From Pseudomonadota bacterium (GTDB lineage: Bacteria > Myxococcota_A > Polyangia > Palsa-1104 > JAEUJZ01): a stretch of 50,851 bases of DNA. Shown here one piece after another: positions 3,561 through 47,636 of the stretch; the stretch's first letter is position 1; every line of letters begins with the position of its first letter. The notes beneath the pieces are model-generated. The model was not told the DNA's origin. It was given only the letters and a program-made list of their open reading frames with translations, and did not search any database. The DNA lies in assembly GCA_035437965.1 (NCBI GenBank), contig DAOMZC010000001.1, forward strand, positions 1-50,851, written 5' to 3'. A program made the translations under genes and the position numbers.

Positions 3561-3583
3561 AGGGAGGGTCCGGACGGGCGGCG

Positions 3584-4918: not shown

Positions 4919-4961
4919 CAGCAGTCCTTCGCGGCCCAGGCAGCAGGGTAGCTTGGCGGCT

Positions 4962-4990
4962 TTTTCATATTGGGAACCAATATATGAAAA
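4962..4990. promoter_or_regulatory. AT-rich near-palindrome, candidate operator, 44-72 nt upstream of the MFS start codon
   Basis: Sequence ttttcatattgggaaccaatatatgaaaa. The core ATATTGG-gaa-CCAATAT (4967..4983) has perfect 7-bp arms. The outer arms TTTTCAT/ATGAAAA pair if a 2-nt bulge is allowed. It is strikingly AT-rich in a GC-rich background. Confidence 0.4.
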
Positions 4991-5099
4991 CTATTTATGT
5001 TCCTCCAGGCTTTTGCGCTCTCGGCTTGCGCGAGCAAAACAGGGGCTCTCACTAGCGCGGGAATTTCCCCTTGTTTGGATACCTGTACTACCTGGCTGC

Positions 5100-8000
5100 T
5101 TAGAACGAGAGCCGCGCGCCGAGCCGCATGTAGAGCGGGGCCTGGTAGGCGGTCGGCTGGCCGTAGTTACTGTTTAGGACCAGCGGCTGGCCTTCCTCGG
5201 CGCGCAGGTGGGCGAGGTCTGCAGCCTTGCCTCCTTTTATCGGGCCGACCACCGAGTAGGTGTAGTCGTCATCGACGCTTACCACCTGCTGCTGGTTTAG
5301 CAGGTTTATCACATCGGCAAAGACCAGCAGCGCGACCCGCTTTGCGAACTTGTGCTCGTAACCGACGTGCAGATCGAGCTGCGTAACGATGGGGGTGCGA
5401 CCCCCGGTGCCGCGCGGCAGAATGAACACCTGGCTCGTTCCATACAGCGGGTGCCCGCCGAGCACGTTGATGGGGCGGCCGGAGAACGCGGTACCGGTAA
5501 GGCTCAGCGTCAAGCTGCCGCTCTGTCCCAGCGGCTGGATATAGGTCCCGAGGAGCTTTACGTTGTGCGGCCGATCGGTGGGGAGCGGGCCGTTGCGGTT
5601 GGCGGCGAGGTCGGGCGAGTCGAACGCCAGGGAGATATTGGGAGCGAAGTCTCTTGTATGCGCGTCGTACGGACCGGGGTAGTTCCCAAGGGTGCGCGAG
5701 AAGGTGTAGCTCGCCAGCACGCTGAAGCGATTCGACAGCCGCTTCTGCGCCGTGAGGACCAGCGCGTGGTAGTTGCGCGTGGCGCGGCTCGTGGTGCTGC
5801 TGATGGCGCGATATCCGGTGAGCTGGCGCTGCACATTCATAAGCTCGGCCTGCGCCGCGGGGCTCTTGTCCTGCTTCAGCTCGGCGATCCGCTGCTCGTA
5901 CTTTTGCACCTGGGCTTCATCGATGGGCGCGCCGGGGTTGCCAAGGATGGCCGCGCCGGTCGCGTCGACCCCCACGTCTTCCACGACGCTGCCGAGGGTC
6001 CGGTAGACATAGCCGACACCGAGCACGAAATCCAGACCGACGTCGTACACAAGGCCGGCCGAGACCTCGTCCAGGTACTGGCCCTTCACGCCCGGCTCGA
6101 CCAGGTAGGGGTCGCCGGCGATCAGGAACTGCGGACTGTTCACCGAGCAGGGGGCGCCCGGCGCTGACTGCGGCACCGGCAGCGGACGCCCGCCCGGGGT
6201 AAGCGGCACGCGCGGGCAGTTCGCGGCGTTTGGTCCCACGATCGCCCCTCGGCCGGCAAAGGCGCGGTCGTTGATGCTCAGCGGCAGCGATTCATAGAAC
6301 CGGCCGTAGCTCGCATACAGCTTGGAGCGGCCCTTTCCCGTCGCGTCGTAAGTGATGCCGAGGCGCGGCGCCAGGTTATCGTAGATGCCGACCTGCCGGC
6401 TGCCGAGCTGGTCGAAGATCTCCTGCGCCTCCCAGCGGAGGCCGGCGTTTACCACCAGACCCGGCACCCAGCCGACGGTCCAGCTGTCGCGCAGATACAG
6501 GCTGACGTTGCGCGTTGCGGTCACCGACCTGTAGCTATCAAGGCGCTCGCCGCTGCCGTCCGCGGCGCGCACTCCGTACTGCTGCGTGCGTCGCAGCCGT
6601 AGGCCATCCGGGCTGGTCTGCCAGGTAGTGTGTCCCGAAAACGGATCCCCGGGATCGAGGTCAGGGCCGGTAGAGAAGCGGTTATTGTCGTAGCTCAGGT
6701 ACTCGAAGTCAGCGCCCAGCTTGAGGGCGTGCGTGCCGCGCAGCGGGTTGTGGCGGCCGCCGGCGCTGACGAACATCGTGGCGCTCGCCAGGAGCTGGTG
6801 GCGCAGCAGCACCGTCAGGCTATAGGGACCGTAGCCCCCCCGCCTGTATTGAGTCAGCGGACAGGGGTTCGACAGGCTGCCATCGGGCAGCGGCTGGCGC
6901 CGGCACTCGGGAACGTCTTCGAAGTCGGACAGGGAGTACGGATCCGCGCGGTCGGCAAAGTAGACAAAGGAAGCCTCGCCCTGGTTTGCCGGCTCTATAT
7001 GCTGGCCCTGATAGTGGAAGCCGTACATCACATCGAGCTGCAGGCGCCGCTCCAGCAGCTTGCCGGTGTAGCGCGCGGACGCATCGTGCTGCTGATTCAG
7101 GGTGCTCACCTGCTTGTCGGGAACGTTGGCGTAAAGGAACGGCCGCAGGACCCCATAACCATAGGACTCGGTTGGCGAGGCGATGTAGCTGAGGGTGATG
7201 TTGTGGTTCGCGCTCAGGTTGAACTGCAGCTTGGCTACTCCGTTATAGAGCCGCGTCGACTCTGTATAAGGCTGGGTGCGGTCGGGCAGCGCAGCGGTCT
7301 CGGTGGCCAGGCTGCCGAGGCCCTGCTGGCAGGTATCGAAGGCCAGATATCCAAGGCGGGTGCAGGGCAGGCTCCGCGGCTGGCCGCTGCTGTCGAGCAC
7401 CTGGCGCCGCACTTCCCGCTCGTGCGCGTCCTGGCTTAGGGTGGGAGCGAAGCCGATGTAGAACCAGATGCGGTCCTTGACGATCGGTCCGCCGAGCTCG
7501 AAGCCGACGTCGAAGCCCAGGGCGCTGCTGCGCGTACGCAGTCCGAGCGACTCACCCAGCCGGGCCACCGTATTGGGCTCCAGCTGGAAGGGGTTTACCG
7601 ACCCGAAGACGCTGCCATGGAACTCGTTGCTGCCGCCCTTGGTGACGATGCTGATGATTCCTCCGGTGGCGCGTCCGTACTCGGCCTGGTAGCCGCTGGT
7701 GATGACGTTGATCTCTTTTATGAAGCTCTGGTGGAGCTGCGTGGCGAGCACGCCGGTGTTCGGATCCGAGGTGTTCAGTCCATCGATGAGGAAGTTGTTC
7801 TCGACCCCGGTGGAGCCCGACAGGGAGACGCCGACATCGCCGCCGAGCCCGCGCGGCGCGTCCACCGCGCCCGGGGCCAGCTGCAGGGCGCTCTCGAAGG
7901 TACGCCCGCGCAGGGCGCTGCTCTGTAGGAGCTCCTGATTAAGCTCCACGCCCGAGCTGGCGCTTGCGGTGTCCACATTGGGCGCCCGCTCGCGGATCAC

Positions 8001-8453
8001 CTGGACCTGCCGCGTCTGTTTCTGCGTGGCTATCTGGACATTGATGGTCAGGGTCTTGTTCTGCCCGATGCGCACGCCGGGGCGCTCGACGACCAGGTCG
8101 GCGAAGTAGAAGCGCACTACGTAGCCGTCGCCGGAGGGCAGCTGGGTGATCAGGTAGCGCCCGTCGCGATCGGTGACCTCGGTCTGCTCGCCCTGCAGCG
8201 CGGGTCCGCTTACGACCACCGTGGTCCCGGCCAGCGGCGCTCCGTCCACGTCGCGCGTCACCAGGCCGCCGATCTGACCCGGCTGCACCTGGGCGCGCGC
8301 TGGGCTCAGCATGAAGAGCACTCCCAGCAGCGTAACCACGCCGAGCGCCGCTGCATCGGCGGCGGGCGCCCCAAGGCGCAGCGACCGGAAGGGTACGATT
8401 TCATTACGTTTAAACCCGAACCGATAAAGAAGGTCAGTTGCCATGGGCGGCAC
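5100..8453 (-). CDS. Oar-type TonB-dependent outer-membrane receptor with an N-terminal carboxypeptidase-regulatory-like domain
   Basis: 1117 aa. Signal-like hydrophobic segment ending ...SPARAQ. Carboxypeptidase-regulatory-like segment (VTRDVDGAPLAGTTVVVSG...TDRDGRYLITQLPSGDGYVV). Plug motifs (ENNFLIDGLNTSDP; INVITSGYQAEYGRATGGIISIVTKGGSNEFHG). Long Gly/Tyr/Asn-rich barrel region and a C-terminal ...LGARLSF aromatic terminus. The start could be Met4 (8444). Confidence 0.85.
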   Translation of the reverse strand: MPPMATDLLYRFGFKRNEIVPFRSLRLGAPAADAAALGVVTLLGVLFMLSPARAQVQPGQIGGLVTRDVDGAPLAGTTVVVSGPALQGEQTEVTDRDGRYLITQLPSGDGYVVRFYFADLVVERPGVRIGQNKTLTINVQIATQKQTRQVQVIRERAPNVDTASASSGVELNQELLQSSALRGRTFESALQLAPGAVDAPRGLGGDVGVSLSGSTGVENNFLIDGLNTSDPNTGVLATQLHQSFIKEINVITSGYQAEYGRATGGIISIVTKGGSNEFHGSVFGSVNPFQLEPNTVARLGESLGLRTRSSALGFDVGFELGGPIVKDRIWFYIGFAPTLSQDAHEREVRRQVLDSSGQPRSLPCTRLGYLAFDTCQQGLGSLATETAALPDRTQPYTESTRLYNGVAKLQFNLSANHNITLSYIASPTESYGYGVLRPFLYANVPDKQVSTLNQQHDASARYTGKLLERRLQLDVMYGFHYQGQHIEPANQGEASFVYFADRADPYSLSDFEDVPECRRQPLPDGSLSNPCPLTQYRRGGYGPYSLTVLLRHQLLASATMFVSAGGRHNPLRGTHALKLGADFEYLSYDNNRFSTGPDLDPGDPFSGHTTWQTSPDGLRLRRTQQYGVRAADGSGERLDSYRSVTATRNVSLYLRDSWTVGWVPGLVVNAGLRWEAQEIFDQLGSRQVGIYDNLAPRLGITYDATGKGRSKLYASYGRFYESLPLSINDRAFAGRGAIVGPNAANCPRVPLTPGGRPLPVPQSAPGAPCSVNSPQFLIAGDPYLVEPGVKGQYLDEVSAGLVYDVGLDFVLGVGYVYRTLGSVVEDVGVDATGAAILGNPGAPIDEAQVQKYEQRIAELKQDKSPAAQAELMNVQRQLTGYRAISSTTSRATRNYHALVLTAQKRLSNRFSVLASYTFSRTLGNYPGPYDAHTRDFAPNISLAFDSPDLAANRNGPLPTDRPHNVKLLGTYIQPLGQSGSLTLSLTGTAFSGRPINVLGGHPLYGTSQVFILPRGTGGRTPIVTQLDLHVGYEHKFAKRVALLVFADVINLLNQQQVVSVDDDYTYSVVGPIKGGKAADLAHLRAEEGQPLVLNSNYGQPTAYQAPLYMRLGARLSF

Positions 8454-8611: not shown

Positions 8612-9316
8612 TCACAGCGCGGTGGCGCGCAGGCTGGGAACTTCTTGGGCCGGCCTGTAGGTCAGCTCGGACTGGAGGCGATCGAAGAAGCCGACCCACA
8701 GCTTCCACATCTTCTCTGCGTTGCGGATGATCTCGTCCATCTGCGCGGGCGCGAACGTGGCCGTGACTGCCGCATTGGCGCGGACCACGTGCTCGGGCTC
8801 TTGACAGATATGGATGTCGACCCACGGGAGGGCGTCGGCGCCGGTCGTCTTGCGCACCGCGTGGCCGATGCCGGACACCATCGTAAGGTCCGCCACTTCC
8901 GTTCCGTAAAGGAATCCCAGCGCCTCCATGGGCTGCGCGGACGCCTGGGCGTAGCCTTCGAGCAGCTTGCGAGTCTCGGGCAGCGGCGCCGTCTCGGTCA
9001 GCGCCGACTCGGTAAATCCCACTGCGGTCATCGTGTCGACAAAGACCCGCTCATGCGCGAGCTGGGGGTTCCCTTCGCCAAGCTCTTGATACAGAATCTT
9101 CGAGACCTCGGTCTTGGTGTCCTGCCGGGGAAGCACGGAGATTGTCCGCGCCAGGAACACCGGGAAGTAGTGCAGCGGATGCCACCACTGCCCAAGAAAA
9201 GTTCCGGCATCGGCGCGGGTAATCGCAGTGTCGCGGACATGCTGGAAAAAGGGGTGGCAGAGGAGCGCATTCCTGCTCTCTTGGCGAGCGAGGATTTCGA
9301 CGATTCCAGAGCTCAT
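8612..9316 (-). CDS. Heme-oxygenase-like diiron oxidase/oxygenase (HDO; PqqC/TenA/CADD-fold iron-containing redox enzyme)
   Basis: 234 aa. N-terminal LLCHPFFQHV...FLGQWWH is typical of the fold. Candidate metal-ligand motifs are YQELGEGNPQLAHERVF (E..E......H), LYGTEVAD (E) and VDIHICQEPEHV (H....E..H). Confidence 0.7.
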   Translation of the reverse strand: MSSGIVEILARQESRNALLCHPFFQHVRDTAITRADAGTFLGQWWHPLHYFPVFLARTISVLPRQDTKTEVSKILYQELGEGNPQLAHERVFVDTMTAVGFTESALTETAPLPETRKLLEGYAQASAQPMEALGFLYGTEVADLTMVSGIGHAVRKTTGADALPWVDIHICQEPEHVVRANAAVTATFAPAQMDEIIRNAEKMWKLWVGFFDRLQSELTYRPAQEVPSLRATAL

Positions 9317-9410: not shown

Positions 9411-10658
9411 TTACAAGGGATTTACTTCAAACAGGGGAAAGTAGGACTCGATCTTCCCTTCGCAGTACTCCGCGGCGAGCTGTGGAATCTCTTCCCACTT
9501 ATAGACTCTGTCGCCAGCAACCGGGGGACGCCAGTTCATCGCTTCCGCCGCCTGCACTGCCTGCCAGGCTTCGGTGTCGCGCGACCCATGGGTGTTGACG
9601 TGGATGTGGCGGTTTATGCACTCTAGTCCCCGCATGATCGACAGCCGCATGCCGTGCTTCCAGCCCGAAGTCGCAATCACCCCCTGGCGGCCCAGGGCCT
9701 TTAGCGTCGCGCGAAAGACCGGCGCACCGATGTTGTCGATGAAGATGGAGACGCCCTCACCCTGCGTGTGCTCCGCGACCAGGTGTAATAGATACTCCTC
9801 GGCCTCCCGGTAGCGATCGCGGTAGGCTGGATCGCGCTGATAGAGCTCCTCATCGAAAGCCAGGCCCGAGAACCGGCTGCGATCGATGGGCCGGATTCCC
9901 ATCTTCTCGATCAGCGCCAGCCGCTTGGGCGAGGAGCCGATCATCGCCGTCTGGCAGCCGAGCTGCCGCGCCAGCGCGAGCTGCGCCAGCGACACCCCGC
10001 CGCCCCAGCCCCAGACGTGCACCTGTTCCGGCGCGAGCTCGGGCATCTGCGCCCGCCAGCAGCCCCAGGCCACCTTCCAGTTGTCCCAGGCGGTCAGATA
10101 GCGCACCGAAAACGCCGCCCACTCCTGCGCCGTGAAGGTAGAGTGTCCGGGCAGCGGAATCAGGCAGCGCGCCGGCATCTTGCTCTGCTTGGCCAAAAGC
10201 CCGATCGTGCCCGGCGCGTCGAAGCCCAGGACCTTGAGCGTATAGCCGTGCTTGTCCTTGATCACGTTCCCATCAAGGAGGCACAGGTCCCCGGCCTTCA
10301 CCGAAGTGACCGCGGCGCCGGGGCGCAAGACGCGCACGACGCCGGAGTTCCCGATCACCACCGAGCCCTCCTGCCGCAGGCGGCAGATATCCACCGGGCT
10401 GCGCTGCAGCGCGTGGCTCATGTTGGCTTCCCAGCAGCCATAGATCGGCTCGACCAGGACTTCGTCGGGGGTGATATTGGGAAAGCTGAACTGCTCACGC
10501 TTTAGCTGCGCGCTCTGCGGGTCCGCGCCGTTCCCTTGCCCCTGATAGAGGACCCAGGCTTCTGTCGTAATCTTGTTCAGGGTCGAGCTGTGGCTCGTCA
10601 CGGTGGGTCCCCAGTTACCTTGAGGCGCCGGCGATTTGTATTTGGCGCTAGATGTCAT
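9411..10658 (-). CDS. MDR-superfamily oxidoreductase, crotonyl-CoA carboxylase/reductase-like in length and motif pattern
   Basis: 415 aa. GroES-like N-domain segment (DEVLVEPIYGCWEANMSH...VIGNSGVVRVLRPGAAVTSVKAGDLC). Nucleotide-binding segment VHVWGWGGGVSLAQLALARQLG, which resembles the CCR pattern IWGASGGLGS..A.QFA as I recall it. The ATG lies inside the last 11 nt of the sulfotransferase gene. Confidence 0.7.
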   Translation of the reverse strand: MTSSAKYKSPAPQGNWGPTVTSHSSTLNKITTEAWVLYQGQGNGADPQSAQLKREQFSFPNITPDEVLVEPIYGCWEANMSHALQRSPVDICRLRQEGSVVIGNSGVVRVLRPGAAVTSVKAGDLCLLDGNVIKDKHGYTLKVLGFDAPGTIGLLAKQSKMPARCLIPLPGHSTFTAQEWAAFSVRYLTAWDNWKVAWGCWRAQMPELAPEQVHVWGWGGGVSLAQLALARQLGCQTAMIGSSPKRLALIEKMGIRPIDRSRFSGLAFDEELYQRDPAYRDRYREAEEYLLHLVAEHTQGEGVSIFIDNIGAPVFRATLKALGRQGVIATSGWKHGMRLSIMRGLECINRHIHVNTHGSRDTEAWQAVQAAEAMNWRPPVAGDRVYKWEEIPQLAAEYCEGKIESYFPLFEVNPL

Positions 10659-11880
10659 AGTTTAGCTGTCTCGCAACTTGCACCGTCATCGAGTGCAGCG
10701 GCTGAGGGGGCTTGGGCTGCTGAACGCGGGCGAGCTCCGGCTGGATCCGCTGGCGCTGCTGCAGGCCGGGGTCGCCGACCCCATCGAGCATGCGCTCACC
10801 CTGGTAGGGGTTGAGGACCGCCGGATCGAACTCGACGCCGAGGAAGCTGCAGACCCTGCGCATCACCGGCTCTGGACTCTGCACGAGCTCCTCGTAGCGC
10901 ACCCAGTGCTGACGGGCTTCAGGGATGGTGGCGAGGAAGGTCAGGGCGTTCTGGGTGTAGATCGCCCACAGCTTTTCGGCAAAGAGGAAGGGGTTGTCAT
11001 CCCAGAAGCCGAACCAGTTCTGCAGCCAGCGGTTGAAGCGGTTGCGCACCATCGACTCCAGGACCGGGTAGGGGTGGCGCCCGATGAAAAGATACTTCGG
11101 CTGCGCGAACATCTGCTCGGCGCGCTGCAGCCAGCCCACGTGCGCCTGGTAAAGGGGCGACTTGTCGACCACCAGCCGTCCCCCGGCGCGCTCGCCGAGC
11201 CGCGCGTAGACCTCGGCCATCGGCAGGTTCTGCGCTTCAAGCTCGCCGACCTGCCGCTCCGCCTCCTCGTACGTAACGCGGCCCAGGTGCATGAACGCCT
11301 GCGGCAGACCCGTGTGAAACCCATCCACCCCCGCCTCGCGCAGCTCCTGCCGCTTGGCGCCCAGGGTGTCGAAGGGCAGCAGGTTCAGCTCCGGTGGAGA
11401 GAACAACGCCGGGTGCCCGGTCAGCATCGCGCGCAGGAGCGTCGTTCCCGAGCGCGGTGGACCCAGCAGGAACACCGCTGTAGGCCGCGCCTCTCCGGCC
11501 GTATCAGGGGGATACGGCGCGGGCGGCTTGAAGGTCCAGGTGCCCCCTTCATGGGGATCCGCGTACCCGGCCGCAGGGGCAGGGGGCTGGATCTCGCTGA
11601 TGATGTAAGTCGCGAGCTCGCGCAGCGTAGTCCTTCCGGCCAGCTCCGCCGGCATCAGCCACAGACCGAGCTTCTCATGAAGCCGCGGCAACAGCTCGTC
11701 CGCCAAGACCGTGGGGTCTTGCCATGCGGCCTTGATTTCAGCAAATGCAGCAGTCGGTGCCACCGCCGCCGCCGGCCTATCCGCAAGCTCCGCCGCCCAG
11801 GCCGGCAGGTGCGTCAGCAGGAGCTCCGTGGCGTCGGCCCGGGGCAGGGTGCGGAGCTTTTCGTAAAGGTCTCTGCTCAT
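10648..11880 (-). CDS. PAPS-dependent sulfotransferase of the CurM/OLS 'activating ST' type, with an N-terminal carrier-protein-like domain
   Basis: 410 aa. 5'-PSB loop LLGPPRSGTTLLRAMLTGHPALFSPPELNLLPF. Also VVDKSPLY, a 3'-PB-like FIGRHPYPVLESMVR, and RYEELV...LNPYQGERM. This order and wording match my recollection of the CurM ST domain. The ATG is 1 nt after the TAG of the TE gene. Confidence 0.85.
   Translation of the reverse strand: MSRDLYEKLRTLPRADATELLLTHLPAWAAELADRPAAAVAPTAAFAEIKAAWQDPTVLADELLPRLHEKLGLWLMPAELAGRTTLRELATYIISEIQPPAPAAGYADPHEGGTWTFKPPAPYPPDTAGEARPTAVFLLGPPRSGTTLLRAMLTGHPALFSPPELNLLPFDTLGAKRQELREAGVDGFHTGLPQAFMHLGRVTYEEAERQVGELEAQNLPMAEVYARLGERAGGRLVVDKSPLYQAHVGWLQRAEQMFAQPKYLFIGRHPYPVLESMVRNRFNRWLQNWFGFWDDNPFLFAEKLWAIYTQNALTFLATIPEARQHWVRYEELVQSPEPVMRRVCSFLGVEFDPAVLNPYQGERMLDGVGDPGLQQRQRIQPELARVQQPKPPQPLHSMTVQVARQLNYDI
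11581..11838 (-). other. Degenerate (serine-less) carrier-protein-like domain at the N-terminus of the sulfotransferase
   Basis: ST residues about 15-100. WQDPTVLADELLPRLHEKLGLWLMPAELAGRTTLRELATYI aligns with one gap to the ACP of the 2582-aa PKS in this window ([40 protein letters not shown]). The phosphopantetheine Ser position reads Pro (DS -> DP). Confidence 0.5.
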
Positions 11881-11881
11881 G

Positions 11882-14335
11882 CTAGTTTCCCAGCCTGGCT
11901 CTGCTCAGGCACTCCGAGAGCTTCGCTGCCACTACCTGAATGTGCGGCTCGCCGATGAAGGTCATGTGGTTGCCGGGCACCCGGTGAATCTCCGGCTCGA
12001 CCTGCAGCGCGTCCCACCCCAGCTTCTCGCTGCGGGTGTCGTTTTCCCAATCGGTGGCGCGGAAGATTATGGCGCGCATGGGGACGACATCCTTGGGCTC
12101 GTAAGGCATCTGCAGCTGCAGCTTGAAGACCTCGAGCAGGTGGCGGGCGGTGGTCACTTCTTCACCCGAGGCCATGATGTTATTGGCGCGCAGCCAGCCG
12201 GCAAACTGCGCCCACTGGGCCTCGGCATCCGGCGAGCTCGGGGGCTCATAGGGGGCGACGATCTTGTCGGCCAGGACCTCTTCGAAGGTGACTACATACT
12301 CGGCAATCCACTGCGCGGTGGTCTCGTGCTGCAGGCGCTTTACCAGGTGCGGCGCCTCGGTATCGAACAGGATGAGGCACGCCACCTGCTCACCGGCCTT
12401 GAGCAGCCGCTGGGCCATCTCGTAGGCGATAAAGCTGCCGAACGAGTGGCCGCCAAGATAGTACGGGCCGTGCGGCTGCAGGCGCTTGATCGCGGCCAGG
12501 AAGTGCGCGGCCATGGCCTCGACGGTGGTGTGCGGGCTGCTCTGTCCATCGAGCCCTGCGGCCTGCAGACCATAAAACGGCTGCTCCGGATCCATGTAGC
12601 GGGCCAGATAGTACATGTAGAAGATCGTCCCGCCGGCCCCCGGCGCCAGGAAGAACGGAGGCTTGCTGCCATTTGGCTGCACCGGGACCAGCGCCGAAAA
12701 GAGAGCGTCCGCGCTCTGTCCCTTGACCACATCTTGAATCAGCTTCGCCAGTCCGACGATCGTCGGGTTCAGGAGCAGCGCCGAGATCGGGAGCTGAATC
12801 CCAAACTGCTGACGGATCTGGCCGACCAGCCGGATGGCCAGCAGCGAGTGACCGCCGAAGTCATAGAAGTTATCGTGCGTACTTACAGAGGGCAGGTTGA
12901 AAAGCTTCTGCCACAGCTGCACGAGCGCCTGCTCGACCGCGTTGAGCGGCGGCACAAACTGGCGGGCGGTCGCCGCCCGCACGGGCGCCGCCGCAACGGG
13001 CGGAACCTCGCCCTGCGGAATCGTCTGTATGAGCGCGCCCAGAGAACGGTCGGCGACCGCCGCCGCGAGAAGGTTCTTCAGGTGAAGAGCGAGCCGCTCG
13101 ACATCGGCGGCCGTAAACGCGGCCCGGCTGTAGACGAACTTTACGTGCAGCCCCTCGTGCGGGAACACCGTGATGGTCAGCGGATACTGGGTCTGGGCGC
13201 CGATCGAGCGGACATCGCTTACCGTAAACGGCTGACCTGCTGCGGGCGCGGTCGGCAGCGGATAATTTTCAAAGACCAGCAGGCTGTCGTAAAGCCGGAA
13301 GGTGGGGGGAACTTTGCTCCACTGGTGGATCTGGCCGGCGGCAGCGTACTCGTAGCTCTGCTGCTCCAGGGTCTGGGCGGCCAGCGCCTGCAGCCAGAGT
13401 GAAAGAGTCTGCTCCGGTTTTACTTCTACCCGCAGCGGCACCGTGTTGATAAACAGACCGACCATGGTCTCGACGCCCGGCAGCGCCGCCGGACGGCCCG
13501 AGACCGTGATCCCGAAGAGGACCTCCGCGGCCCCGCTGTAGCGGGCCAGCAGCAGGGCCCACGCCCCTTGCATCACCGTACTCAGGGTCACCTGGCTCTG
13601 CCGCGCCAGCGTGCGCAGTTCTTGCAGCAGGCTCGCCGGCAAGAGCAGCTCGTGGTCACCAAAGCCGGTCGCTTCCGCGGGCTCAAGCCGCGCCGGAGCC
13701 AGCGGCGTGGGGCCGCGGAAGCCCTGCAGGCGCTTGCGCCAGAACGCTTCGGTCAGCGCCGTGTCCTGCCGCTGCAGCCAGCCTACATACTCGCTGTACG
13801 GACGTACAGGCGGCAGGCGTAGCGCGCGGCCGGCGCACTCTGCCAGGTAGACCTCGTGCACCTCGCGCAGCACGATCGGCAGCGCCCAGCCATCGAGCAG
13901 GATGTGGTGCGTGGTCCAGACGGCCTGATAGCTCTGCTCACCAAGCTGCAAGATCGCCAGCCGCATCAGCGGCACCTTGCCCAGGTTGAAGCCGAGCACC
14001 CGATCGGCGCGCAGAAACTCTTCAAGCCGCTGCGCGCTTTCCGCCGGGGAAGCGGCGCGCCAGTCCTGCCAGGAAATCTGCAGCCCCGGCTGCCGCAATA
14101 CAAACTGCAGCGGCTCGGGCTGATCCTTCCACAAAAAGCCGGTGCGCAAGCCCGAGTGGCGCATAAGGATCTGCTGCCACGCCCGCTCATAAGCGGGCCG
14201 ATTCAAGACGCCTTGCCACTGCCAGAGAAACTGTTCGATCTGGCGACCCGAAGCGGGGAAAGCCAGCGTCTCGAGCAGCATCCCCTGCTGCGAAGGAGTC
14301 AGCGGATATAACGCTTCGACCGGATTGGTGCTCAT
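11882..14335 (-). CDS. NRPS termination protein C-T-TE, without an adenylation domain
   Basis: 817 aa. C domain (YPLTPSQQGML, HHILLDGWA; about 13031..14335). Only about 27 residues later comes the T domain (FYDFGGHSLLAIRL, Ser497; about 12731..12952). The TE follows (GGHSFGS Ser631, PGNHMTF His790; about 11885..12673). No A-domain core motifs (TSGSTGxPKG, YGPTE, YxTGD) anywhere in the ORF. Confidence 0.9.
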   Translation of the reverse strand: MSTNPVEALYPLTPSQQGMLLETLAFPASGRQIEQFLWQWQGVLNRPAYERAWQQILMRHSGLRTGFLWKDQPEPLQFVLRQPGLQISWQDWRAASPAESAQRLEEFLRADRVLGFNLGKVPLMRLAILQLGEQSYQAVWTTHHILLDGWALPIVLREVHEVYLAECAGRALRLPPVRPYSEYVGWLQRQDTALTEAFWRKRLQGFRGPTPLAPARLEPAEATGFGDHELLLPASLLQELRTLARQSQVTLSTVMQGAWALLLARYSGAAEVLFGITVSGRPAALPGVETMVGLFINTVPLRVEVKPEQTLSLWLQALAAQTLEQQSYEYAAAGQIHQWSKVPPTFRLYDSLLVFENYPLPTAPAAGQPFTVSDVRSIGAQTQYPLTITVFPHEGLHVKFVYSRAAFTAADVERLALHLKNLLAAAVADRSLGALIQTIPQGEVPPVAAAPVRAATARQFVPPLNAVEQALVQLWQKLFNLPSVSTHDNFYDFGGHSLLAIRLVGQIRQQFGIQLPISALLLNPTIVGLAKLIQDVVKGQSADALFSALVPVQPNGSKPPFFLAPGAGGTIFYMYYLARYMDPEQPFYGLQAAGLDGQSSPHTTVEAMAAHFLAAIKRLQPHGPYYLGGHSFGSFIAYEMAQRLLKAGEQVACLILFDTEAPHLVKRLQHETTAQWIAEYVVTFEEVLADKIVAPYEPPSSPDAEAQWAQFAGWLRANNIMASGEEVTTARHLLEVFKLQLQMPYEPKDVVPMRAIIFRATDWENDTRSEKLGWDALQVEPEIHRVPGNHMTFIGEPHIQVVAAKLSECLSRARLGN

Positions 14336-14337
14336 CG

Positions 14338-17300
14338 CTAGCTCGCGTTCTCAAGTGCTATGGCGGCCAGCGCCTGATCGAGCGCGGCTTGACCGAGCCG
14401 GCTCTCGGGGAAGTCGCTCGGGGTGTAGCCGCCGGCAGAGGGCGCGCAGCAGTGCTCGATGAGGGCCGTGAGCGCGTCCATATAGCGGTCGATGAGCCGC
14501 TCCAGGGTCGCCTGCCGATGAAAGCTGGCGCTATAGGCAAAGTCGATTTCAAGCCGACCGCCGATGACGATGCCGCTTACATCGAGCAGCCGGGCGCGGG
14601 TATTTTGCGGGCTGACTTCGGGCTCACAAGAGCCCGCGGCCGGTCCGCGGATGATGCCGGCGTCGGCCCCGTGCCCCTCGCCAAACTGTCCCATGTAGTT
14701 GAAGCTGAGCTGCGGCTCGGGAAGCTGCGCCAGCGCCGCCGAATCGCTGAGGTAGCGCAGGATGCCGTAGCCGATGCCGTTATTTGGTATCTGGCGGAGC
14801 TGCTCCTTGATCGACTTGATGGCGCTTCCCACATCTTTGTCCGCGCCCGCCAGAGTCAGGTACACCGGATAGAGCGTGGTGAACCAGCCCACGGTGCGCG
14901 ACAGATCGATGCCGCTGTGCAGCTCTTCGCGGCCGTGGCTCTCCAGCGAAAGGAGCAAGGAATCTTCCTTTGTCCACTCGGTCACTGTCTGCATCAGGGC
15001 GGTCAGCAGGAGATCATTTACCTGCGTGTGATACGCGGCCGGCGCCTCCTGCAGCAGCGCGCGCGTCAGCTCCGCCGAGAGCGCCCGGGTTACATGCAGC
15101 GCCGTGGCCACCGTGTTGGCGCCGGCCTCCTGGTCCTGCGGCAGCGCGGACGCCACCTTCGGCAGGCGAGCGAGCCAGCCAGCCAGCTGAGGCTCCATCA
15201 GGGCGGCTCCCTGCTGGGTGAGCCAGTGCGCCCACGCCTGGAAGGAAGTAGTCTTGGCGGGCAGTACGATGTCCTCACCTCTGCTCAGCTGCCCATAGGC
15301 AGTCTGCAAGTCTTCAAGCAGGATGCGCCAGGAAACCCCGTCCACGGCCAGGTGATGGATGGTGATGGACAGGCGCGCCGGCCGCTCTGCTCCCAGCACG
15401 AAGAGCGCTGCGCGCAGGAGCGGCCCGTCCTCTATATTCAGGCTCTCTTGCAGGGCGGCAATCTGGCCGGCGATGGCCCGGTCCTGCTCGGCCGCCGGCA
15501 GCTCGCTCAGGTCCGAGACGGCCAGCGAGACCTCGCCCGGCGCTGCGCCGTGGCTCTGCTGCCAGCCCGCGCTCGTCCTTGTATGGCGCAAGCGCAGCGC
15601 ATCATGATGCACCAGCAACTTCTGCAGCACCTGACGCAGCACCGCGGGCGAGGTATCCGCCGCCACTTCAAGGTACGTAGACTGATTGAAGTGATGGGGG
15701 TTCGTCGGCTCCTGGGCAAAAAACCAGCGCTGGATGGGGGTCAGCGCCACCTCGCCGGTAACGAGGCTCTGCGCCGGCCGGGTCGGCCCGGTATCGGCTG
15801 TGACCACCAGCGCCAGCTCGGCAATCGTCCGCTTCTGGAAGACCTGCTTGGCGGTAATATGCAGCCCGGCCTTGCGCGCCCGGCTCACCAGCTGGATGCT
15901 GATGATCGAGTCGCCGCCCAGCTCGAAGAAGTTATCATGGATGCCGACTCGCTCGACACGGAGCACGTCCTGCCAGATCCCTACCAGGGTCCTCTCGATG
16001 GCGGTCTGCGCGGCGGCAAAGTGCTCTGCAGGCTGGTGCTGGTGATCGATGCGCCGCGCGGCGAGGGCGCGGCGATCGACTTTCCCATTTGGGGAAAGAG
16101 GTAGCGCTTGCTCGATCACAAAGGCAGCCGGCACCATGTAATCAGGCAGGTTTTGCTGCACGTAGCTCCGCAAGATCGAGCGCAGCGCCGGCGCGGTCTC
16201 GGTGCACTGCGGACCCTGTACCACGTACGCCACCAGGCGTTTGCCGCCCGCGTCTTCGTTCACGATGACAGCCGCTTCGCGCACCTGCGGGTGCTGGCTC
16301 AGCACCGCTTCGATTTCGCCCGGCTCGACGCGAAACCCGCGAAGCTTGATCTGATTGTCAGCACGTCTGACAAACTCGATGCCCACGCCGGACGAACCGC
16401 AGCCGTCGGCCGTAGAGCAAAAGCGTGCCAGATCGCCAGTTCTATATAGGCGAGTCGCAGTCTTTGCGGGCGCAATGCAGTGCGCAATAGGGTGATCGAT
16501 AAATGCCTTCGCGGTAAGCTCTGGCCGGTGCAGATACCCTTCGGCCAGGCCGTCGCCGGCAACATAAAGCTCCCCCGTCACTCCGATTGGTACGGGACGC
16601 AGCAGCCGGTCGAGGATGTACGCTTGGCTGTTGCGGATCGGGCGGCCGATCGGAACCGTCTTCGCCGCATCCGAGAGCTCGGTGATGGCATGCCAGGTCG
16701 AAAAAGTCGTGTTTTCGGTGGGACCGTAGACGTGCAGAAAGTGGGTCGGCCGACCGTGGCGCAGCACCCTTCGCACGGCCCCGGGGTCTACCGCTTCGCC
16801 GCCGAACAGCAGGTAGCGCAGCGAGCTGAAGGCGTCGGGAATCAGGCTCACCACCTGGTTGAACAGCGCGGTCGTCAGAAAGAGGGTAGTGATTCCCTGG
16901 TCGCGCAGCTTGGCGACCAGCTGCGGTGGACTCAGGATGTCGTCACGCTCGAGGCCCCACAGCTGCGCGCCGTTTAGCAGCGCTCCCCAGATTTCGAAAG
17001 TAGCGGCGTCGAACGCGGCATTGGCGGCCTGGGCGATGCGATCCGTCGCCGTGAGCTGCACGTAATCCGTAGCCTTGACCAGGCGGTTGACCGCGCGGTG
17101 CGAGACGACGACTCCCTTGGGCTGACCCGAGGAGCCCGAGGTATAGATGACGTAGGCGCGCCCGGTCGGCAGCGCTGCGCCCATCAGGTCGTCGCTGCCG
17201 TACGCCGCAAGCCGGGCTTCCAGGCGGTCAAGGGCGACGTAGGTAGCAGCCGCTGCCGGCAACTTGTCCAGCCAGCGGGCCTGGGTGAGCACTATGGGAG

Positions 17301-18996
17301 CCTGCGTATCCGCCAGCAGGAACGAAAGCCGTGCTTGCGGATACTCCGGTTCCAGCGGTACGTAGGCGCCGCCCGCCTTGAGGATTGCCAGCATGCCGAC
17401 AATCATGTCCAGCGAGCGCTCGACGCACAGGCCGACGAGCGGTCCGCCCTCGCGTCCGGGATCGACTCCCAGCTGCTGCAGGTGGCGGGCAAGCCGGTTG
17501 GCGCGGCGGTTGAGCTCTGCATAGGTCAGCTGCTCGCTGCCGTAGCGGACGGCCATGGCGTCTGGGGAGCGCCGCACCTGCTGCTCGAACAGGGCGTGGA
17601 TCGTCTGCTCACGCGGGTAGGCCGCGGTGGTCGCGTTCCACTCGATAAGGAGCGCGTGCTGCTCGGCCGCGGTCACCATCTGCACGTCGCGCAGCCGCTG
17701 ACCGAGATCGCTGGCCAGGCTCTGCAGGAGGGTCTGATAGTGGGCCGCGAGCCGCGCGATGGTCTCGGCCGTGAAGCGCTGCGGATCGTAGCCCAGCTTG
17801 AAGGTCGACTTTTCCTCCAGGAGGATCAGGAGCTCCAGCGGCAAGCTTGTCTGATCGACGGCGCTGACCTGCACGCGCTCGGCCTGGCCACCCGGCGCGA
17901 CGGCGATGGGATAGTTCTCAAACACCGCGACGTTGTCGAACAGCCGGGTTCCCGCCGGGAGCTCGCTCCACTTCTGGATGTCCATGAGGGCCGCGTATCC
18001 GTAGCGCTCGCGGTCGACCTGCTGCTGTTGCAGCGCCTTCAGCCAGGCTGACAGCGCGGCGTCTTCGTCCACCTGGATGCGCAGCGGCAGCGTGTTGATA
18101 AACACGCCCACCATCTCTTCGACCCCCGCCAGGGTGGGCGGTCGGCCCGAGACGACGGTGCCAAACAGCACATCGGTCTCACCGCTGTAGCGGCTCAGCA
18201 GGAGTCCCCAGGCCCCCATGAAGAGGGTGTTGAGCGTAAGCTCGTGGGCGCGCGCGACCGTCCGCAGCTCGGCCAGCAGCGCAGGAGGAAAAAGGACGCT
18301 CTCCTCGGCGTGGAGCGGGGCCGCAGCCTCTCCATCCAGCGTGGGCAGAGAGGGAACGACAAGGGGAGTCGGCGCCGCAAACCCTTTGAGGTAACCTCGC
18401 CAGAACGCCTCTGCGCTCTTGCGGTCTTGCTTCTGCAGCCACGCAATATAGTCACCGAACGGGCGTGGGGTCGAGAGCCGCGGCGGCGCGCCCGTGCGGG
18501 CAGACTCGTACAGGGTAAATATCTCTTTGAACAGGTTGGCGAGACTCCAGCCGTCCGTAATCAGGTGATGGTAGGTCCAGATGAACTCATAGCTCTGCGC
18601 GGCCCGCCGCACCAGCGTTAGGCGCATGAGCGGAGCTTCGGTAAGTACGAAATCCTGCCGGCGCTCGCGGAGCAGCAGCGCGGTCAGCTGGGCGTCTTGC
18701 GCGGCGGGCGTCTGCTCACGCAGGTCGAGCTCCGTCCACTTCAGGGCAACCGTCTTGCGCACCACTTGCAGCGGCTGCGGTCGGCCTTCCCAGACAAACA
18801 GCGTGCGCAGGATCGGGTGGCGCTCCACGGCGAGCTCCCACGCCCGTTTGAAGCAGTCGACCTGCAGCGCCGGCAGGGTCATATTGAGCTGGTTTATATA
18901 GTCACCCGTGCCCGGGGCGGCGATCGCATGAAACAGCATCCCCTGCTGCATCGGCGCCAGGGGATATATTGCTTCAATATTTTTCTGCTGGCTCAT
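14338..18996 (-). CDS. NRPS module C-A-T-E (Ile/Val-like code)
   Basis: 1552 aa. C (YPLAPMQQGMLFH, HHLITDGWS; about 17692..18984). A (AYVIYTSGSSGQPKGV, VYGPTE, YRTGD, NGKVDR; about 16057..17619). T (FFELGGDSIISIQL; about 15802..16014). E (HHLAVDGVSWRIL; about 14407..15765). Hand-extracted specificity code DAFFLGVTFK. Confidence 0.92.
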   Translation of the reverse strand: MSQQKNIEAIYPLAPMQQGMLFHAIAAPGTGDYINQLNMTLPALQVDCFKRAWELAVERHPILRTLFVWEGRPQPLQVVRKTVALKWTELDLREQTPAAQDAQLTALLLRERRQDFVLTEAPLMRLTLVRRAAQSYEFIWTYHHLITDGWSLANLFKEIFTLYESARTGAPPRLSTPRPFGDYIAWLQKQDRKSAEAFWRGYLKGFAAPTPLVVPSLPTLDGEAAAPLHAEESVLFPPALLAELRTVARAHELTLNTLFMGAWGLLLSRYSGETDVLFGTVVSGRPPTLAGVEEMVGVFINTLPLRIQVDEDAALSAWLKALQQQQVDRERYGYAALMDIQKWSELPAGTRLFDNVAVFENYPIAVAPGGQAERVQVSAVDQTSLPLELLILLEEKSTFKLGYDPQRFTAETIARLAAHYQTLLQSLASDLGQRLRDVQMVTAAEQHALLIEWNATTAAYPREQTIHALFEQQVRRSPDAMAVRYGSEQLTYAELNRRANRLARHLQQLGVDPGREGGPLVGLCVERSLDMIVGMLAILKAGGAYVPLEPEYPQARLSFLLADTQAPIVLTQARWLDKLPAAAATYVALDRLEARLAAYGSDDLMGAALPTGRAYVIYTSGSSGQPKGVVVSHRAVNRLVKATDYVQLTATDRIAQAANAAFDAATFEIWGALLNGAQLWGLERDDILSPPQLVAKLRDQGITTLFLTTALFNQVVSLIPDAFSSLRYLLFGGEAVDPGAVRRVLRHGRPTHFLHVYGPTENTTFSTWHAITELSDAAKTVPIGRPIRNSQAYILDRLLRPVPIGVTGELYVAGDGLAEGYLHRPELTAKAFIDHPIAHCIAPAKTATRLYRTGDLARFCSTADGCGSSGVGIEFVRRADNQIKLRGFRVEPGEIEAVLSQHPQVREAAVIVNEDAGGKRLVAYVVQGPQCTETAPALRSILRSYVQQNLPDYMVPAAFVIEQALPLSPNGKVDRRALAARRIDHQHQPAEHFAAAQTAIERTLVGIWQDVLRVERVGIHDNFFELGGDSIISIQLVSRARKAGLHITAKQVFQKRTIAELALVVTADTGPTRPAQSLVTGEVALTPIQRWFFAQEPTNPHHFNQSTYLEVAADTSPAVLRQVLQKLLVHHDALRLRHTRTSAGWQQSHGAAPGEVSLAVSDLSELPAAEQDRAIAGQIAALQESLNIEDGPLLRAALFVLGAERPARLSITIHHLAVDGVSWRILLEDLQTAYGQLSRGEDIVLPAKTTSFQAWAHWLTQQGAALMEPQLAGWLARLPKVASALPQDQEAGANTVATALHVTRALSAELTRALLQEAPAAYHTQVNDLLLTALMQTVTEWTKEDSLLLSLESHGREELHSGIDLSRTVGWFTTLYPVYLTLAGADKDVGSAIKSIKEQLRQIPNNGIGYGILRYLSDSAALAQLPEPQLSFNYMGQFGEGHGADAGIIRGPAAGSCEPEVSPQNTRARLLDVSGIVIGGRLEIDFAYSASFHRQATLERLIDRYMDALTALIEHCCAPSAGGYTPSDFPESRLGQAALDQALAAIALENAS

Positions 18997-19021: not shown

Positions 19022-22000
19022 CTACCCGAGCTCGGCGATCAGTGAATCGAGCTCGCTCTGACTCAGCGCGGCGTCGGGAAAGTCCGATGGCGTGAAGCCC
19101 CCGGTACCCGCTGTCAGGCAGTGCTGGCAGTGATCGATCAGCGCCACCAGGTTCTTCAGGTACTGATCGGCCAGCCGCTGGAGGGTCGCGCGCTCGAAGT
19201 GATCGGCGCGATAAATAAAGTCGAGCTGCAGCCGCTGCGAGAGGACGATTCCGTCTATATGAATCAGGTAGGGCGCCGCCGTCTGCGCGCTGTGCTGGGG
19301 GCCTATATCTTCAGTCGCTACTCCCTGCACGATGGCCGCTGACTGCACTTGCGTGGACTCTGCGGGTGAAAACTGGCCAAGATAGTTGAAGCCGATCGGA
19401 GCCTGCGGCATCCCCAGGAGCACAGAGTCCTTCTGCAGATAGCGCAGGATGCCGTAGCTTATACCGCGACTTGGAACCTGGCGGAGCTGCTCTTTGATCG
19501 CTTTGAGGTCGGCGCCCAGATTCGCGCCCGCGTCCTCACCAGCCAGCTCCAGTCGCAGCGGAAAGACGCTGGTGAACCAGCCCACGGTGCGCGATGGATC
19601 CAGGGTCTCGGCAAGCGCTTCGCGCCCGTGCCCCTCAAGCTCGATCAGGGAGTGGGTCGCGCCGGTCCAGTCGGACAGAGTCTTGGCCAGGGCGGTGAGC
19701 AGCAGGTCGTTGATCTGGGTGTTGTAGGCCGCCGGTGCCGCGTGCAGCAGCGCATCGGTCTTCTCTGCCGACAGCGCAACCGACAGCTGGGCGGTGGCCG
19801 GCGCGGCGCTCGGCTCGGGCGCATAGTCGGTCGGCAGCGGCGTGGCGGGGGTCTGCGCGAGCTTCTGCCAGTAAGGGAGATCCGCGGCTACCACTTGCGG
19901 CCCATGGTCCTTGAGCCACTGCGCCCAGGCCTTGAACGAAGTCGTCTTGGCGGGCAGCTGCACGCGCTGGCCCTGGGCCAGCTGCTGATACGCAGTCTCC
20001 AGATCATCGAGCAGAATGCGCCAGGAAACGCCATCGATGACAAGGTGATGCACCACGGTCAGCAGGCGGGCGGGCTGCCCGGAGCCCAGGGTGAAGTAGA
20101 CCATGCGGAGGAGCGCCTTGGACAGACTCAAGCTGGCCTGAAGCTCGCTCGCCCGGGTGGTGAGCGCGGCACGCTGCTCGGCCGGTGAGAGGTGGGAGAG
20201 ATCCACCACCGCAAGAGGCGCTGCCTCGTCGGCAGCGGGCTCCGCATGGTCCTGCTGCCAGCCCGCCGCGGTGAGAGAAAAGCGCAGGCGTAGTCCATCG
20301 TGATGGAGCAGCAGCTGGCCGAGCGCGGCGCGCAAGAGCTCGGGGTCCAGATCGCCGCGTACTACATGCAGCGCCGACATATTGAAGTGGTGGGGCGCCG
20401 GCGACGCTCCGGCGAAGAAGCGCTCCTGGATGGGCGTTAGCGGCACCGGCCCGCTGATCGGGCTCTGCTCCGCTTGGGCGCCGTCCCGCCAGGTAGCCGC
20501 GCGGGCCAGCCGGGCAATCGTCGGATGCTGAAAGACCTGCGGTATATGGAGGCCGGCGCGATGGGCCCGCGCCACCACTTGGATGCCCAGGATCGAGTCC
20601 CCCCCGAGCTTGAAGAAGTTATCGTGGATGCCGACCTGCTGCACCTTCAGCAGGTCTGACCAGATCTCGGCCAGAATCTTTTCAAACTCATTACTTGGCT
20701 GATTGCCGAGGTTCCCAAGAGCAGCTGAGGCTCCTGTCGCGGCCGCGTAATCGGGCGCGGGCAGCGCCTGGCGATCGAGCTTGCCGTTCGCATTCAAGGG
20801 CAGGACGGCCAGCGGCACTATCGCCGCAGGCACCATATAGTCCGGCAGCTTCTGGGAAAGCGCGGAGTGCAGCCCACCGAGATCGACACTCGTCTGCCGC
20901 GGCGTTACATAGGCTACGAGCCGCGGGGCACCCCCATCCGTACGCAGCACGACGACCCCCTCCCGCACCTCCGCGTGCTCACGCAGCACGGCTTCCACCT
21001 CACCCAGCTCGACGCGGAAGCCGCGGAGCTTCACCTGGTCATCCAGGCGGCCCAGATACTCGATATTGCCGTCCGCTAGGTAGCGCGCCCGATCGCCGGT
21101 TCGGTACGCTCTTTGGGGGGGGAGCCCGGCATCGCCGAAGCGCAGCTCGACAAATCGCTCGGCGGTGAGGTCCGGGCGGTTGAGATACCCGCGGGCGACC
21201 TGCGCGCCGCCCAGGTACAGCTCACCGGTCACTCCGACCGGCACGGGCTGGCGCTGCGCATCCAGGATGTACACCTGCGTGTCGGCGAGCGGGCGACCGA
21301 TGGGCGGGACCTCCGATTGCAGCTTGGCGTCCCCCGCCTCCAGCGGTCCCGCCAGGATCACGCCGACAGTGGTCTCGGTGGGTCCGTACTCATTGAAGAT
21401 GCGACAGCGCGGGACCAGCCGCTGGATCTTTTCGATCAGCTCCCAGCTCAGCGCCTCGCCGCCCAGGACCAGCCGCTGGCGCGGCAGGACCCGCTCGGGC
21501 CGGCTGGCCGAGAGCAGCGCCTCCAGGTGAGACGGCGTGATCTTCAGACAGTCATGGGAGTGCGCCAGGTCGGCCGCGAGCCGCTCCGGGTTTGTACACT
21601 GCGCAGAGGAAAGGATCAGCAGCGTTCCGCCCGTGCACAGGGTAGGGAAGATCGCGGTAATCCCCAGATCCGCCGCCAGGGTCGAGACCATCGCGAAGCG
21701 CGCCCGCGCCGGCAGCTCGATGGCCGCGCTGATGCGGCTGACATAGTGGAACAGCTGGCGGTGTTCGACAGCCACCCCTTTGGGCCGCCCCGTCGAGCCG
21801 GACGTATAGATGACGTAGGCCAGGCTCTGCGGCGGAGCGGCACCGGCGACCGGGTCACGGCTCTGCCTGGCGATTTCGGCGCGGTGCGTATCAAGACAGA
21901 CAACCTGGGCGCTGCTCGGCAGCCGCCCGAGCAGCGCGCTCTGCGTAACCAGGAGCGACACTTGCGCATCCGCGATCATGTACGCCAGGCGTTCCTGCGG

Positions 22001-31863: not shown

Positions 31864-39600
<7,737 letters not shown>

Positions 39601-39604
<4 letters not shown>

Positions 39605-46763: not shown

Positions 46764-46835
46764 GGGAACTCCCTCAATTCTACGTATCTGGGGGGATTCT
46801 GCGGCCGGCCTGGATGCGCCCTTACCCGGGGTTTC

Positions 46836-47624: not shown

Positions 47625-47636
47625 GGGAACGCGCTC

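Follow-up and report, generated by a model that had tools for sequence, protein, structure and literature searches.

A terminal nonribosomal peptide synthetase module without an adenylation domain, and how it might be charged

The stretch of DNA analysed here (50,851 nucleotides, contig DAOMZC010000001.1 of assembly GCA_035437965.1, Myxococcota_A, Polyangia), hereafter the window, carries an assembly line of polyketide synthase (PKS) proteins together with nonribosomal peptide synthetase (NRPS) proteins. The last protein of this line, N6, consists of a condensation (C), a thiolation (T) and a thioesterase (TE) domain, and the adenylation (A) domain that would be expected between the first two is absent. 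The features of N6, all on the minus strand, are as follows.

11882-14335, minus strand: N6, terminal NRPS protein with an ATG start, 817 amino acids, in the order C-T-TE, A domain absent (open reading frame (ORF) list, translation, Pfam, A-domain model, AlphaFold2, Foldseek).
13049-14317, minus strand: condensation domain of the DCL subtype (D-configured donor, L-configured acceptor), residues 7-429 (Pfam Condensation, E = 2.5e-82).
13889-13909, minus strand: catalytic motif HHILLDG, residues 143-149 (motif scan).
12932-13048, minus strand: C-T linker, residues 430-468, at the position of an A domain, with the family motif IPxxxIP followed by FVPP (alignment of 22 homologues).
12737-12931, minus strand: thiolation domain, residues 469-533 (Pfam PP-binding, E = 5.3e-16), with the motif GGHSL.
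12845-12847, minus strand: Ser497, the phosphopantetheine serine, in GGHS(497)L.
11945-12658, minus strand: type I thioesterase domain, residues 560-797 (Pfam Thioesterase, E = 6.1e-28), with GHS(631)FG, D658 and H790.

The missing A domain of N6 is real and not an artefact. Pfam returned zero AMP-binding matches in the protein, and an A-domain hidden Markov model (HMM), trained on 22 related C-A-T-TE proteins and run across all six frames of the 50.8-kb window, detected nothing inside 11882-14335; its matches in the window were three in-line A domains (600-637 bits) and, weakly, a free ligase (64 bits). Moreover, the gap between the C and T domains measures 39 residues by HMM envelopes and 29 residues in the AlphaFold2 model (from the end of the last C helix at 436 to the start of the first T helix at 466), far below the approximately 520 residues of an A domain, and thus leaves no space for one. 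The model itself, built with 22 homologues, has a mean predicted local distance difference test (pLDDT) score of 84 and comprises three domains with a disordered 29-residue linker, in which residues 451-458 score below 50. Its top structural match in Foldseek is SrfA-C, in an alignment that skips the SrfA-C A domain, the C domain of SrfA-C being matched with a target-normalised TM-score of 0.89-0.91 at approximately 2.9 Å. A cryptic A domain is thereby ruled out by Pfam, the six-frame HMM, and the AlphaFold2 model with Foldseek. Since only 2 nt lie between the stop of the preceding gene, N5 (14338), and the N6 gene (14335), no A domain is concealed by a frameshift either, and a full-length copy on an independently assembled contig (P0001, 817 amino acids, 96% identical) argues against an assembly artefact.

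An earlier note on this DNA had described the terminal module as C-T-TE with no A domain, and Pfam, the six-frame HMM and the structure model agree with it; the check for a cryptic A domain by HMM and structure prediction that it proposed was run and revealed none. It had put the C-T gap at about 27 residues, a figure slightly below both of our measurements, and its point that the gap is far too small for an A domain stands. Its description of an intact C domain (HHILLDGWA, residues 143-151 in our motif scan) and of Ser497 within GGHSL is likewise borne out. As for the TE domain, the triad of GxSxG serine, Asp and His is complete, and the TE regions of EntF and AB3403 are matched. A role of this domain as a SyrC-like transferase is ruled out, as the nucleophile is Ser rather than Cys and the signature is that of an NRPS-type TE.

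The biosynthetic genes are all encoded on the minus strand and arranged collinearly; the PKS and NRPS proteins upstream of N6 are the following.

39601-46395, minus strand: PKS protein, KS-AT-DH-cMT-KR-ACP.
31856-39604, minus strand: PKS protein, KS-AT-DH-cMT-ER-KR-ACP.
23875-31914, minus strand: hybrid protein, KS-AT-ACP-aminotransferase-C-A-T, A-domain code DVQAIAHGAK.
19022-23878, minus strand: N4, NRPS protein with a TubC-type docking domain followed by C-A-T-E (E, epimerization), A-domain code DLTKVGEILK (Asn/Asp-like).
14338-18996, minus strand: N5, NRPS protein, DCL-A-T-E, A-domain code DAFFLGV-TK (Ile/Val-like), with a GGDSI-type T domain and the E motif HHLAVDGVSW.

The Stachelhaus codes were assigned against an aligned GrsA segment with internally consistent numbering; for N5 the code agrees with the Ile/Val specificity that the earlier note had given to the preceding A domain. 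The E domains of N4 and N5 are canonical (HHxxxDGVSW), and both follow GGDSI-type T domains. The hybrid protein would make a β-amino acyl chain, so that the chain expected on the line is a β-amino fatty acyl group, a first amino acid, a second amino acid in D configuration, D-Ile or D-Val, and then the cargo of Ser497. The A domain of the hybrid (approx. residues 2078-2570) has a code that is Pro-like at several positions, yet deviant.

The C domain of N6 directly follows the E domain of N5. Among solved structures, its sequence is nearest to McyB-C1 (377 bits) and then to PvdL, TycB1 and SrfA-C (315-327 bits, with SrfA-C at 315), whose C domains lie downstream of E domains and hence are DCL types. 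The CmodAA domain of AmbE (7r9x, 112 bits) and CmnI (114 bits) are distant. Judging from these sequence relationships, the C domain of N6 is an ordinary DCL domain, with a D-configured chain from N5 as its expected donor; a dehydrating CmodAA or another special C type is ruled out, the nearest solved relatives being canonical DCL domains. The N-terminal motif of the C domain reads YPLTPSQQGML. N6 begins with the sequence MSTNPVEALYPL, which resembles an acceptor of the communication-mediating (COM) type, and N5 ends with a TPSDFP tail resembling a COM donor. The C-termini of N5 (14338-14430) and N4 (19022-19110) bear near-alike TPSDFP...L..LD tails, and the N-termini of N6 (14300-14335) and N5 (18960-18996) bear similar M-x-x-x-x-(I/V)EA(I/L)YPL heads. 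If docking of the COM type is the function of these tails and heads, N4 could bypass N5 and dock onto N6 as well.

N6 is not an isolated case. A search of 5.8 billion proteins retrieved approximately 25 stand-alone C-T-TE homologues (812-863 amino acids, 35-46% identity) as well as approximately 44 cyanobacterial proteins in which the same kind of A-less C-T pair comes first and a second C domain follows, in some cases along with TauD; A-less DCL-T(-TE) modules were found in cyanobacteria, Acidobacteriota, Burkholderia and Bacteroidota. The search of 1.84 billion representatives was dominated by giant NRPSs with summed scores, which makes the family uncountable there, and showed, within large synthetases, several matches that run contiguously over C-T or C-T-TE. 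The genome scan was dominated by canonical C-A-T modules, with the best C-domain identities in Chloroflexota, Acidobacteriota and cyanobacteria. In an alignment of 22 C-T-TE proteins (36-46% identity), H143, H144, D148, G149, W150, S497 and H790 are invariant, S631 and D658 are conserved in at least 90% and the IPxxxIP motif of the linker is conserved as well. This retention of catalytic residues in the C, T and TE domains across 22 homologues speaks for selection on each of them. When C domains are placed in a neighbour-joining tree, the A-less group stands apart from the C-A-T-TE proteins with one exception, and it has signature positions of its own (G334, 100% versus 0%; H337; Y349; a G379-A380 insertion), a grouping that points to an old, maintained architecture. 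That N6 is instead a decayed relic, its A domain deleted and the cluster inactive or its product released in another way, seems extremely improbable to us: the absent domain alone speaks for it, against the same architecture and conserved catalytic residues across phyla and the 96%-identical copy on an independent contig.

The gene contexts of the homologues, inspected within ±10 kb on both strands, are strikingly uniform in one respect. Every A-less homologue examined (L001, L002, L003, L005, L006, L075, L009 and L038) directly follows a C-A-T-E module, of which it is separate as a protein of its own in the first six (L075 being from Algibacter) and to which it is fused in Burkholderia lata (L009) and in an Acidobacteriota locus (L038); fused versions in the order C-A-T-E-C-T-TE are found in L009 and P0216. 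In three loci (L002, L003 and L005), a single A domain is detectable within this range, that of the preceding module; as L002 and L003 encode the same protein, they represent two distinct clusters. The codes of the upstream A domains differ between loci (Ser-like DVWHISLIDK, Leu-like DAWFLGNVVK, Asn-like), which rules out a special substrate shared by these domains.

What such a T domain carries can be approached from the domain that follows it. In the cyanobacterial C-T-C proteins and in L038, this is a C domain of the LCL type (L-configured donor) with the motif HHIxSDxWS, 44-48% identical to the LCL domain of the window and approximately 25% to DCL or E domains; the second C domain of the C-T-C proteins is thus ruled out as an E domain. 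By the rule that relates C subtype to donor chirality, an LCL domain after an A-less T domain means that the latter presents an L-residue, and not a D-residue handed on from the preceding module. A-less T domains of the DCL-T family appear, then, to be aminoacylated. The cyanobacterial proteins, of approximately 1040 (DCL-T-LCL) or approximately 1355 amino acids (DCL-T-LCL-TauD), stand in mid-line and follow a C-A-T-E protein, as in Nostoc punctiforme (L007, CP001037 4288364-4312434) and Nostoc sp. UHCC 0251 (L008); in the former, the A domain upstream has an Asn/Asp-like code, and the A-less module carries a fused TauD hydroxylase domain.

These data bear on the possibility that Ser497 is never aminoacylated, the DCL domain admitting only the D-epimer from N5, which would pass by transthioesterification to the thiol of the T domain before the TE frees a D-ended peptide. 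Such a role would account for the constant position of the A-less unit behind an E domain, and two distinct clusters (L002/L003 and L005) indeed show one A domain for two T domains. Fungal terminal C-T couplets of the GliP type also work without an A domain. However, in close relatives from this group of C domains the A-less T domain is followed by an LCL domain, which is unexpected for a D-terminated chain; N6 retains an unaltered HHxxxDG motif and the DCL fold as a whole; and, to our knowledge, no bacterial C domain catalyses transfer from thiol to thiol. We consider this route rather improbable.

In our view, N6 is best explained, from its sequence and those of its relatives, as a working termination module of a PKS-NRPS line making a β-amino-fatty-acyl lipopeptide. 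Ser497 would be aminoacylated in trans by one of the A domains of the assembly line itself, the likeliest donor being the A domain of N5, of the Ile/Val type. From the T domain of N5, the DCL domain would then take the D-configured peptidyl chain and join it to the L-aminoacyl group on Ser497, giving a D-Xaa-L-Xaa end in which one residue occurs twice. Release by the TE would follow, probably by macrolactamisation onto the β-amine provided by the aminotransferase domain. This arrangement would amount to the last two modules of surfactin synthesis minus the second A domain. In surfactin, these modules incorporate D-Leu and then L-Leu. The choice of N5 comes from the single-A loci, where the preceding A domain is the sole candidate in view. 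That an in-line A domain, probably that of N5, charges Ser497 in trans is thus the explanation that we tentatively prefer, at somewhat less than even confidence. The earlier note had listed loading of both T domains by the preceding A domain as one of its alternatives; this alternative now gives the best fit to the comparative data.

Precedents exist for such sharing. N6 is a C-T module without an A domain in a multi-protein line that has other A domains, and in this it resembles, under the preferred reading, CmnI, AmbE-T2, HMWP1 and the thalassospiramide synthetase, whose A-less C-T units are charged by the A domain of another module. AmbB reportedly loads AmbE-T2 and HMWP2 is said to load HMWP1, both with experimental support, and the AMB, yersiniabactin and thalassospiramide synthetases are reportedly trans-iterative A-domain systems. 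The in-line A domain CmnA-A1 loads the A-less CmnI, with experimental support (PMC12400406). The C domains of CmnI and AmbE are nevertheless distant from that of N6 (114 and 112 bits, versus 377 for a canonical DCL domain), and that of AmbE is a dehydrating CmodAA. For its part, the surfactin pair of SrfA-B module 6 and SrfA-C shares with N5 and N6 the logic of an E-terminated protein docking on a DCL-led termination module; SrfA-C has its own Leu-activating A domain, which N6 lacks. Among the fetched genomes, 0 of 51 canonical A-T-E/DCL-A pairs had matching specificity codes; this fits the idea that A-less modules fill the same-residue niche, and is too weak to serve as evidence.

Several points weigh against charging by N5, which is an inferred donor. 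A DCL domain after an E domain is true by definition, so that the conserved neighbourhood alone does not mark the upstream A domain as the donor. In part, hit ranking or the loss of a C-A interface may be what sets the A-less C domains apart in the tree. A distant trans-acting A domain may lie beyond the ±10 kb covered around the homologues. Finally, the megapolipeptin synthetase MgpD shares this domain order, yet its products carry a primary amide at the end and contain no Val-Val, and its C-T unit was left unexplained by the authors (PMC11411415).

The genes at the two ends of the line are listed below.

46398-49061, minus strand: probable starter cassette, of an unusual kind, made up of AMP-ligase, FabG-like short-chain dehydrogenase/reductase (SDR) and small ACP-like protein (Pfam, NCBIfam).
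47637-49061, minus strand: acyl/aryl-acid AMP-ligase, nearest solved structures FadD13, MenE and 4-chlorobenzoate-CoA ligase.
46836-47624, minus strand: FabG-like SDR (Pfam, NCBIfam).
46398-46763, minus strand: small ACP-like protein, 121 amino acids, with GFKSLD (Pfam, NCBIfam).
10648-11880, minus strand: stand-alone sulfotransferase of the CurM/olefin synthase (OLS) type, directly downstream of N6 (Pfam Sulfotransfer_3).
9411-10658, minus strand: oxidoreductase, 415 amino acids, like medium-chain dehydrogenases/reductases (MDR) and crotonyl-CoA carboxylases/reductases (CCR).
8612-9316, minus strand: heme-oxygenase-like di-iron family protein (HDO), 234 amino acids (Pfam Haem_oxygenas_2).
5100-8453: TonB-dependent receptor with a CarboxypepD_reg N-terminus (Pfam).

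No stand-alone amino-acid-activating A-T protein of the SyrB1 kind was found in the window by the six-frame HMM, nor any α/β-hydrolase shuttle of the SyrC/CmaE type, the TE being the sole hydrolase fold in the Pfam and NCBIfam scans of the window; a halogenase was found neither in the window nor in related loci. Among the fully annotated loci L001-L006, no SyrB1-like or SyrC/CmaE-like gene recurs beside the homologous C-T-TE genes. More generally, no accessory gene recurs beside C-T-TE in related loci: on the downstream side there is, depending on the locus, an unknown protein, a small ORF, a peptidase M19 or a transporter of the major facilitator superfamily (MFS), and in the window the sulfotransferase. 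This lack of a recurring accessory gene argues against a dedicated shuttle system.

The syringomycin synthetase SyrE, which the earlier note took as its lead analogy, is like N6 in that its terminal C-T-TE lacks an A domain (PMC8949500), and exporters of the ATP-binding cassette (ABC) type, of the SyrD family, lie near N6 as well. Indeed, the earlier note had remarked on SyrD-like exporters, and two ABC proteins of the window reach the curated cut-off of TIGR01194 (cyclic-peptide exporter, SyrD family). It had also seen no SyrB1- or SyrC-like genes, in accordance with the HMM, Pfam and NCBIfam scans; the A-T protein SyrB1, the halogenase SyrB2 and the acyltransferase SyrC have no counterparts in the window or related loci, and the analogy is not supported. 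A link of the supplier to the HDO and MDR genes, suggested in the same note, has no comparative support either, as neither gene occurs in any of the related loci examined; to crotonyl-CoA reductases the MDR protein bears a distant resemblance.

A supplier outside the window nonetheless deserves weight, in the form of a free-standing A or A-T protein, either alone or accompanied by a shuttle like SyrC or a type II TE, after the manner of syringomycin or WS9326A and possibly with a tailored amino acid. SyrE is the precedent reviewed in PMC8949500, and trans A domains are described for WS9326A. The window spans only 50.8 kb and ends approximately 1.8 kb past the AMP-ligase, and the HDO, MDR and sulfotransferase genes near the TE gene could modify a tethered residue. 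Against this, the NRPS-type A or A-T domains of the window are limited to the three in-line ones, Pfam finds no α/β-hydrolase there other than the TE, and the related loci have no recurrent partner gene. On balance, an outside supplier is unlikely, yet a serious contender.

Among the proteins of the window, the AMP-ligase and the small ACP are the sole adenylating enzyme and carrier that stand free, and the earlier statement that no trans A-T partner is visible has to be narrowed in this respect: it holds solely in the sense that the window contains no amino-acid-activating A-T, a free ligase (47637-49061) and a carrier (46398-46763) being present. These two might deliver a non-amino-acid or unusual unit to N6. 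However, the ligase resembles fatty-acyl- and aryl-acid-CoA ligases rather than amino-acid A domains, and the DCL domain requires an amine nucleophile. Indeed, the ligase is ruled out as an amino-acid A domain, its NCBIfam and PDB neighbours being acyl/aryl-acid ligases and its Stachelhaus alignment impossible. Furthermore, the first PKS protein starts directly with a Cys-containing KS domain and has no loading module, so that the cassette is needed there, and its place in the collinear gene order suits a starter role. As it adjoins a PKS without a loading module, the cassette of ligase, SDR and ACP is best read as, and probably is, the starter loader of that PKS, which makes delivery to N6 highly improbable. 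The earlier note had left out both this cassette, now largely excluded as a supplier, and the wider family of A-less DCL-T modules.

The closest published parallel is MgpD of Paraburkholderia megapolitana, a megapolipeptin synthetase with the domain order C-A-T-E-C-T-TE (PMC11411415). The end of the line has the same order in both systems, split over N5 and N6 in the window and fused into one protein in MgpD; comparison with the published description shows in both a second C domain of the DCL type, an A domain of the Val/Ile type and an upstream KS-AT-T-aminotransferase-C-A-T hybrid. The MgpB A domain that follows the aminotransferase is Pro-like and deviant, and was proposed to load a keto acid (PMC11411415). 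Our literature searches on C-T-TE and related notations found SyrE and MgpD alone, and no C-A-T-E-C-T-TE protein or product-linked precedent other than MgpD.

Megapolipeptin thus suggests a different course of termination, in which Ile/Val would be a sacrificial nitrogen donor, oxidised by the HDO and cleaved to leave a primary amide, the C-T-TE unit handling the keto-acyl remnant. MgpD, with its Val-type A domain, follows such a hybrid with a deviant Pro-like code and lies near a stand-alone hydroxylase (PMC11411415), and the window likewise contains such a hybrid (DVQAIAHGAK), together with an A domain of the Ile/Val type and a gene of an oxygenase family. This mechanism, however, is a proposal even in the case of Mgp; at other C-T-TE loci there is no oxygenase close by, and the A domains upstream have different codes (Ser-like, Leu-like and others). 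The HDO itself matches BesC and CADD weakly. For N6 we find this course decidedly improbable. More broadly, an E domain followed by DCL-T(-TE) could form a distinct class of never-loaded modules, acting either as a DCL chirality gate or in the sacrificial-residue termination suspected for megapolipeptin, an idea to which we grant little probability.

A-less terminal modules being already known from SyrE, AmbE and MgpD, N6 joins them and does not found a new class. What the comparison adds is a conserved family of A-less DCL-T modules over several phyla, for which we found no published loading mechanism. Since product prediction counts A domains, an orphan C-T-TE leaves both the length and the C-terminal residue of a product ambiguous. 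If one A domain does charge two consecutive carriers across a docked boundary, the rule for such clusters would be to write D-Xaa-L-Xaa, and this sharing would offer a compact design principle for engineered synthetases; N5 and N6 form a clean two-protein test case. If instead the never-loaded or sacrificial reading were true, a bacterial C domain would have a non-condensing transfer role, and structure prediction would be altered for every cluster with the unit.

Some features of the neighbourhood can be added. The sulfotransferase (10648-11880) scores 224 bits against the CurM sulfotransferase (4gbm) and 207 bits against that of an olefin synthase (4gox). It is thus closely related to two 'activating' sulfotransferases. 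In curacin CurM and the cyanobacterial olefin synthase, this domain sulfonates a carrier-bound β-hydroxyl before TE-driven decarboxylative release. The protein of the window is stand-alone, with an N-terminal extension of approximately 125 residues, and adjoins a TE of the NRPS type; the gene is missing from the other C-T-TE loci.

In the region 262-8453, an MFS protein like the siderophore importers RhtX/FptX (150 bits, below the curated cut-off) adjoins the pair of SyrD-family ABC proteins. No obvious enzymes for chelating groups were seen in the window; judged from the TonB receptor and the RhtX/FptX-like protein beside the exporters, the lipopeptide might be a metallophore.

Lastly, the ORFs of the second PKS (31856-39604) and of the hybrid (23875-31914) share an overlap of 59 nt at 31856-31914, the other gene junctions being 4-nt overlaps or gaps of a few nucleotides. 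The true start of the hybrid gene is probably downstream of its first ATG.

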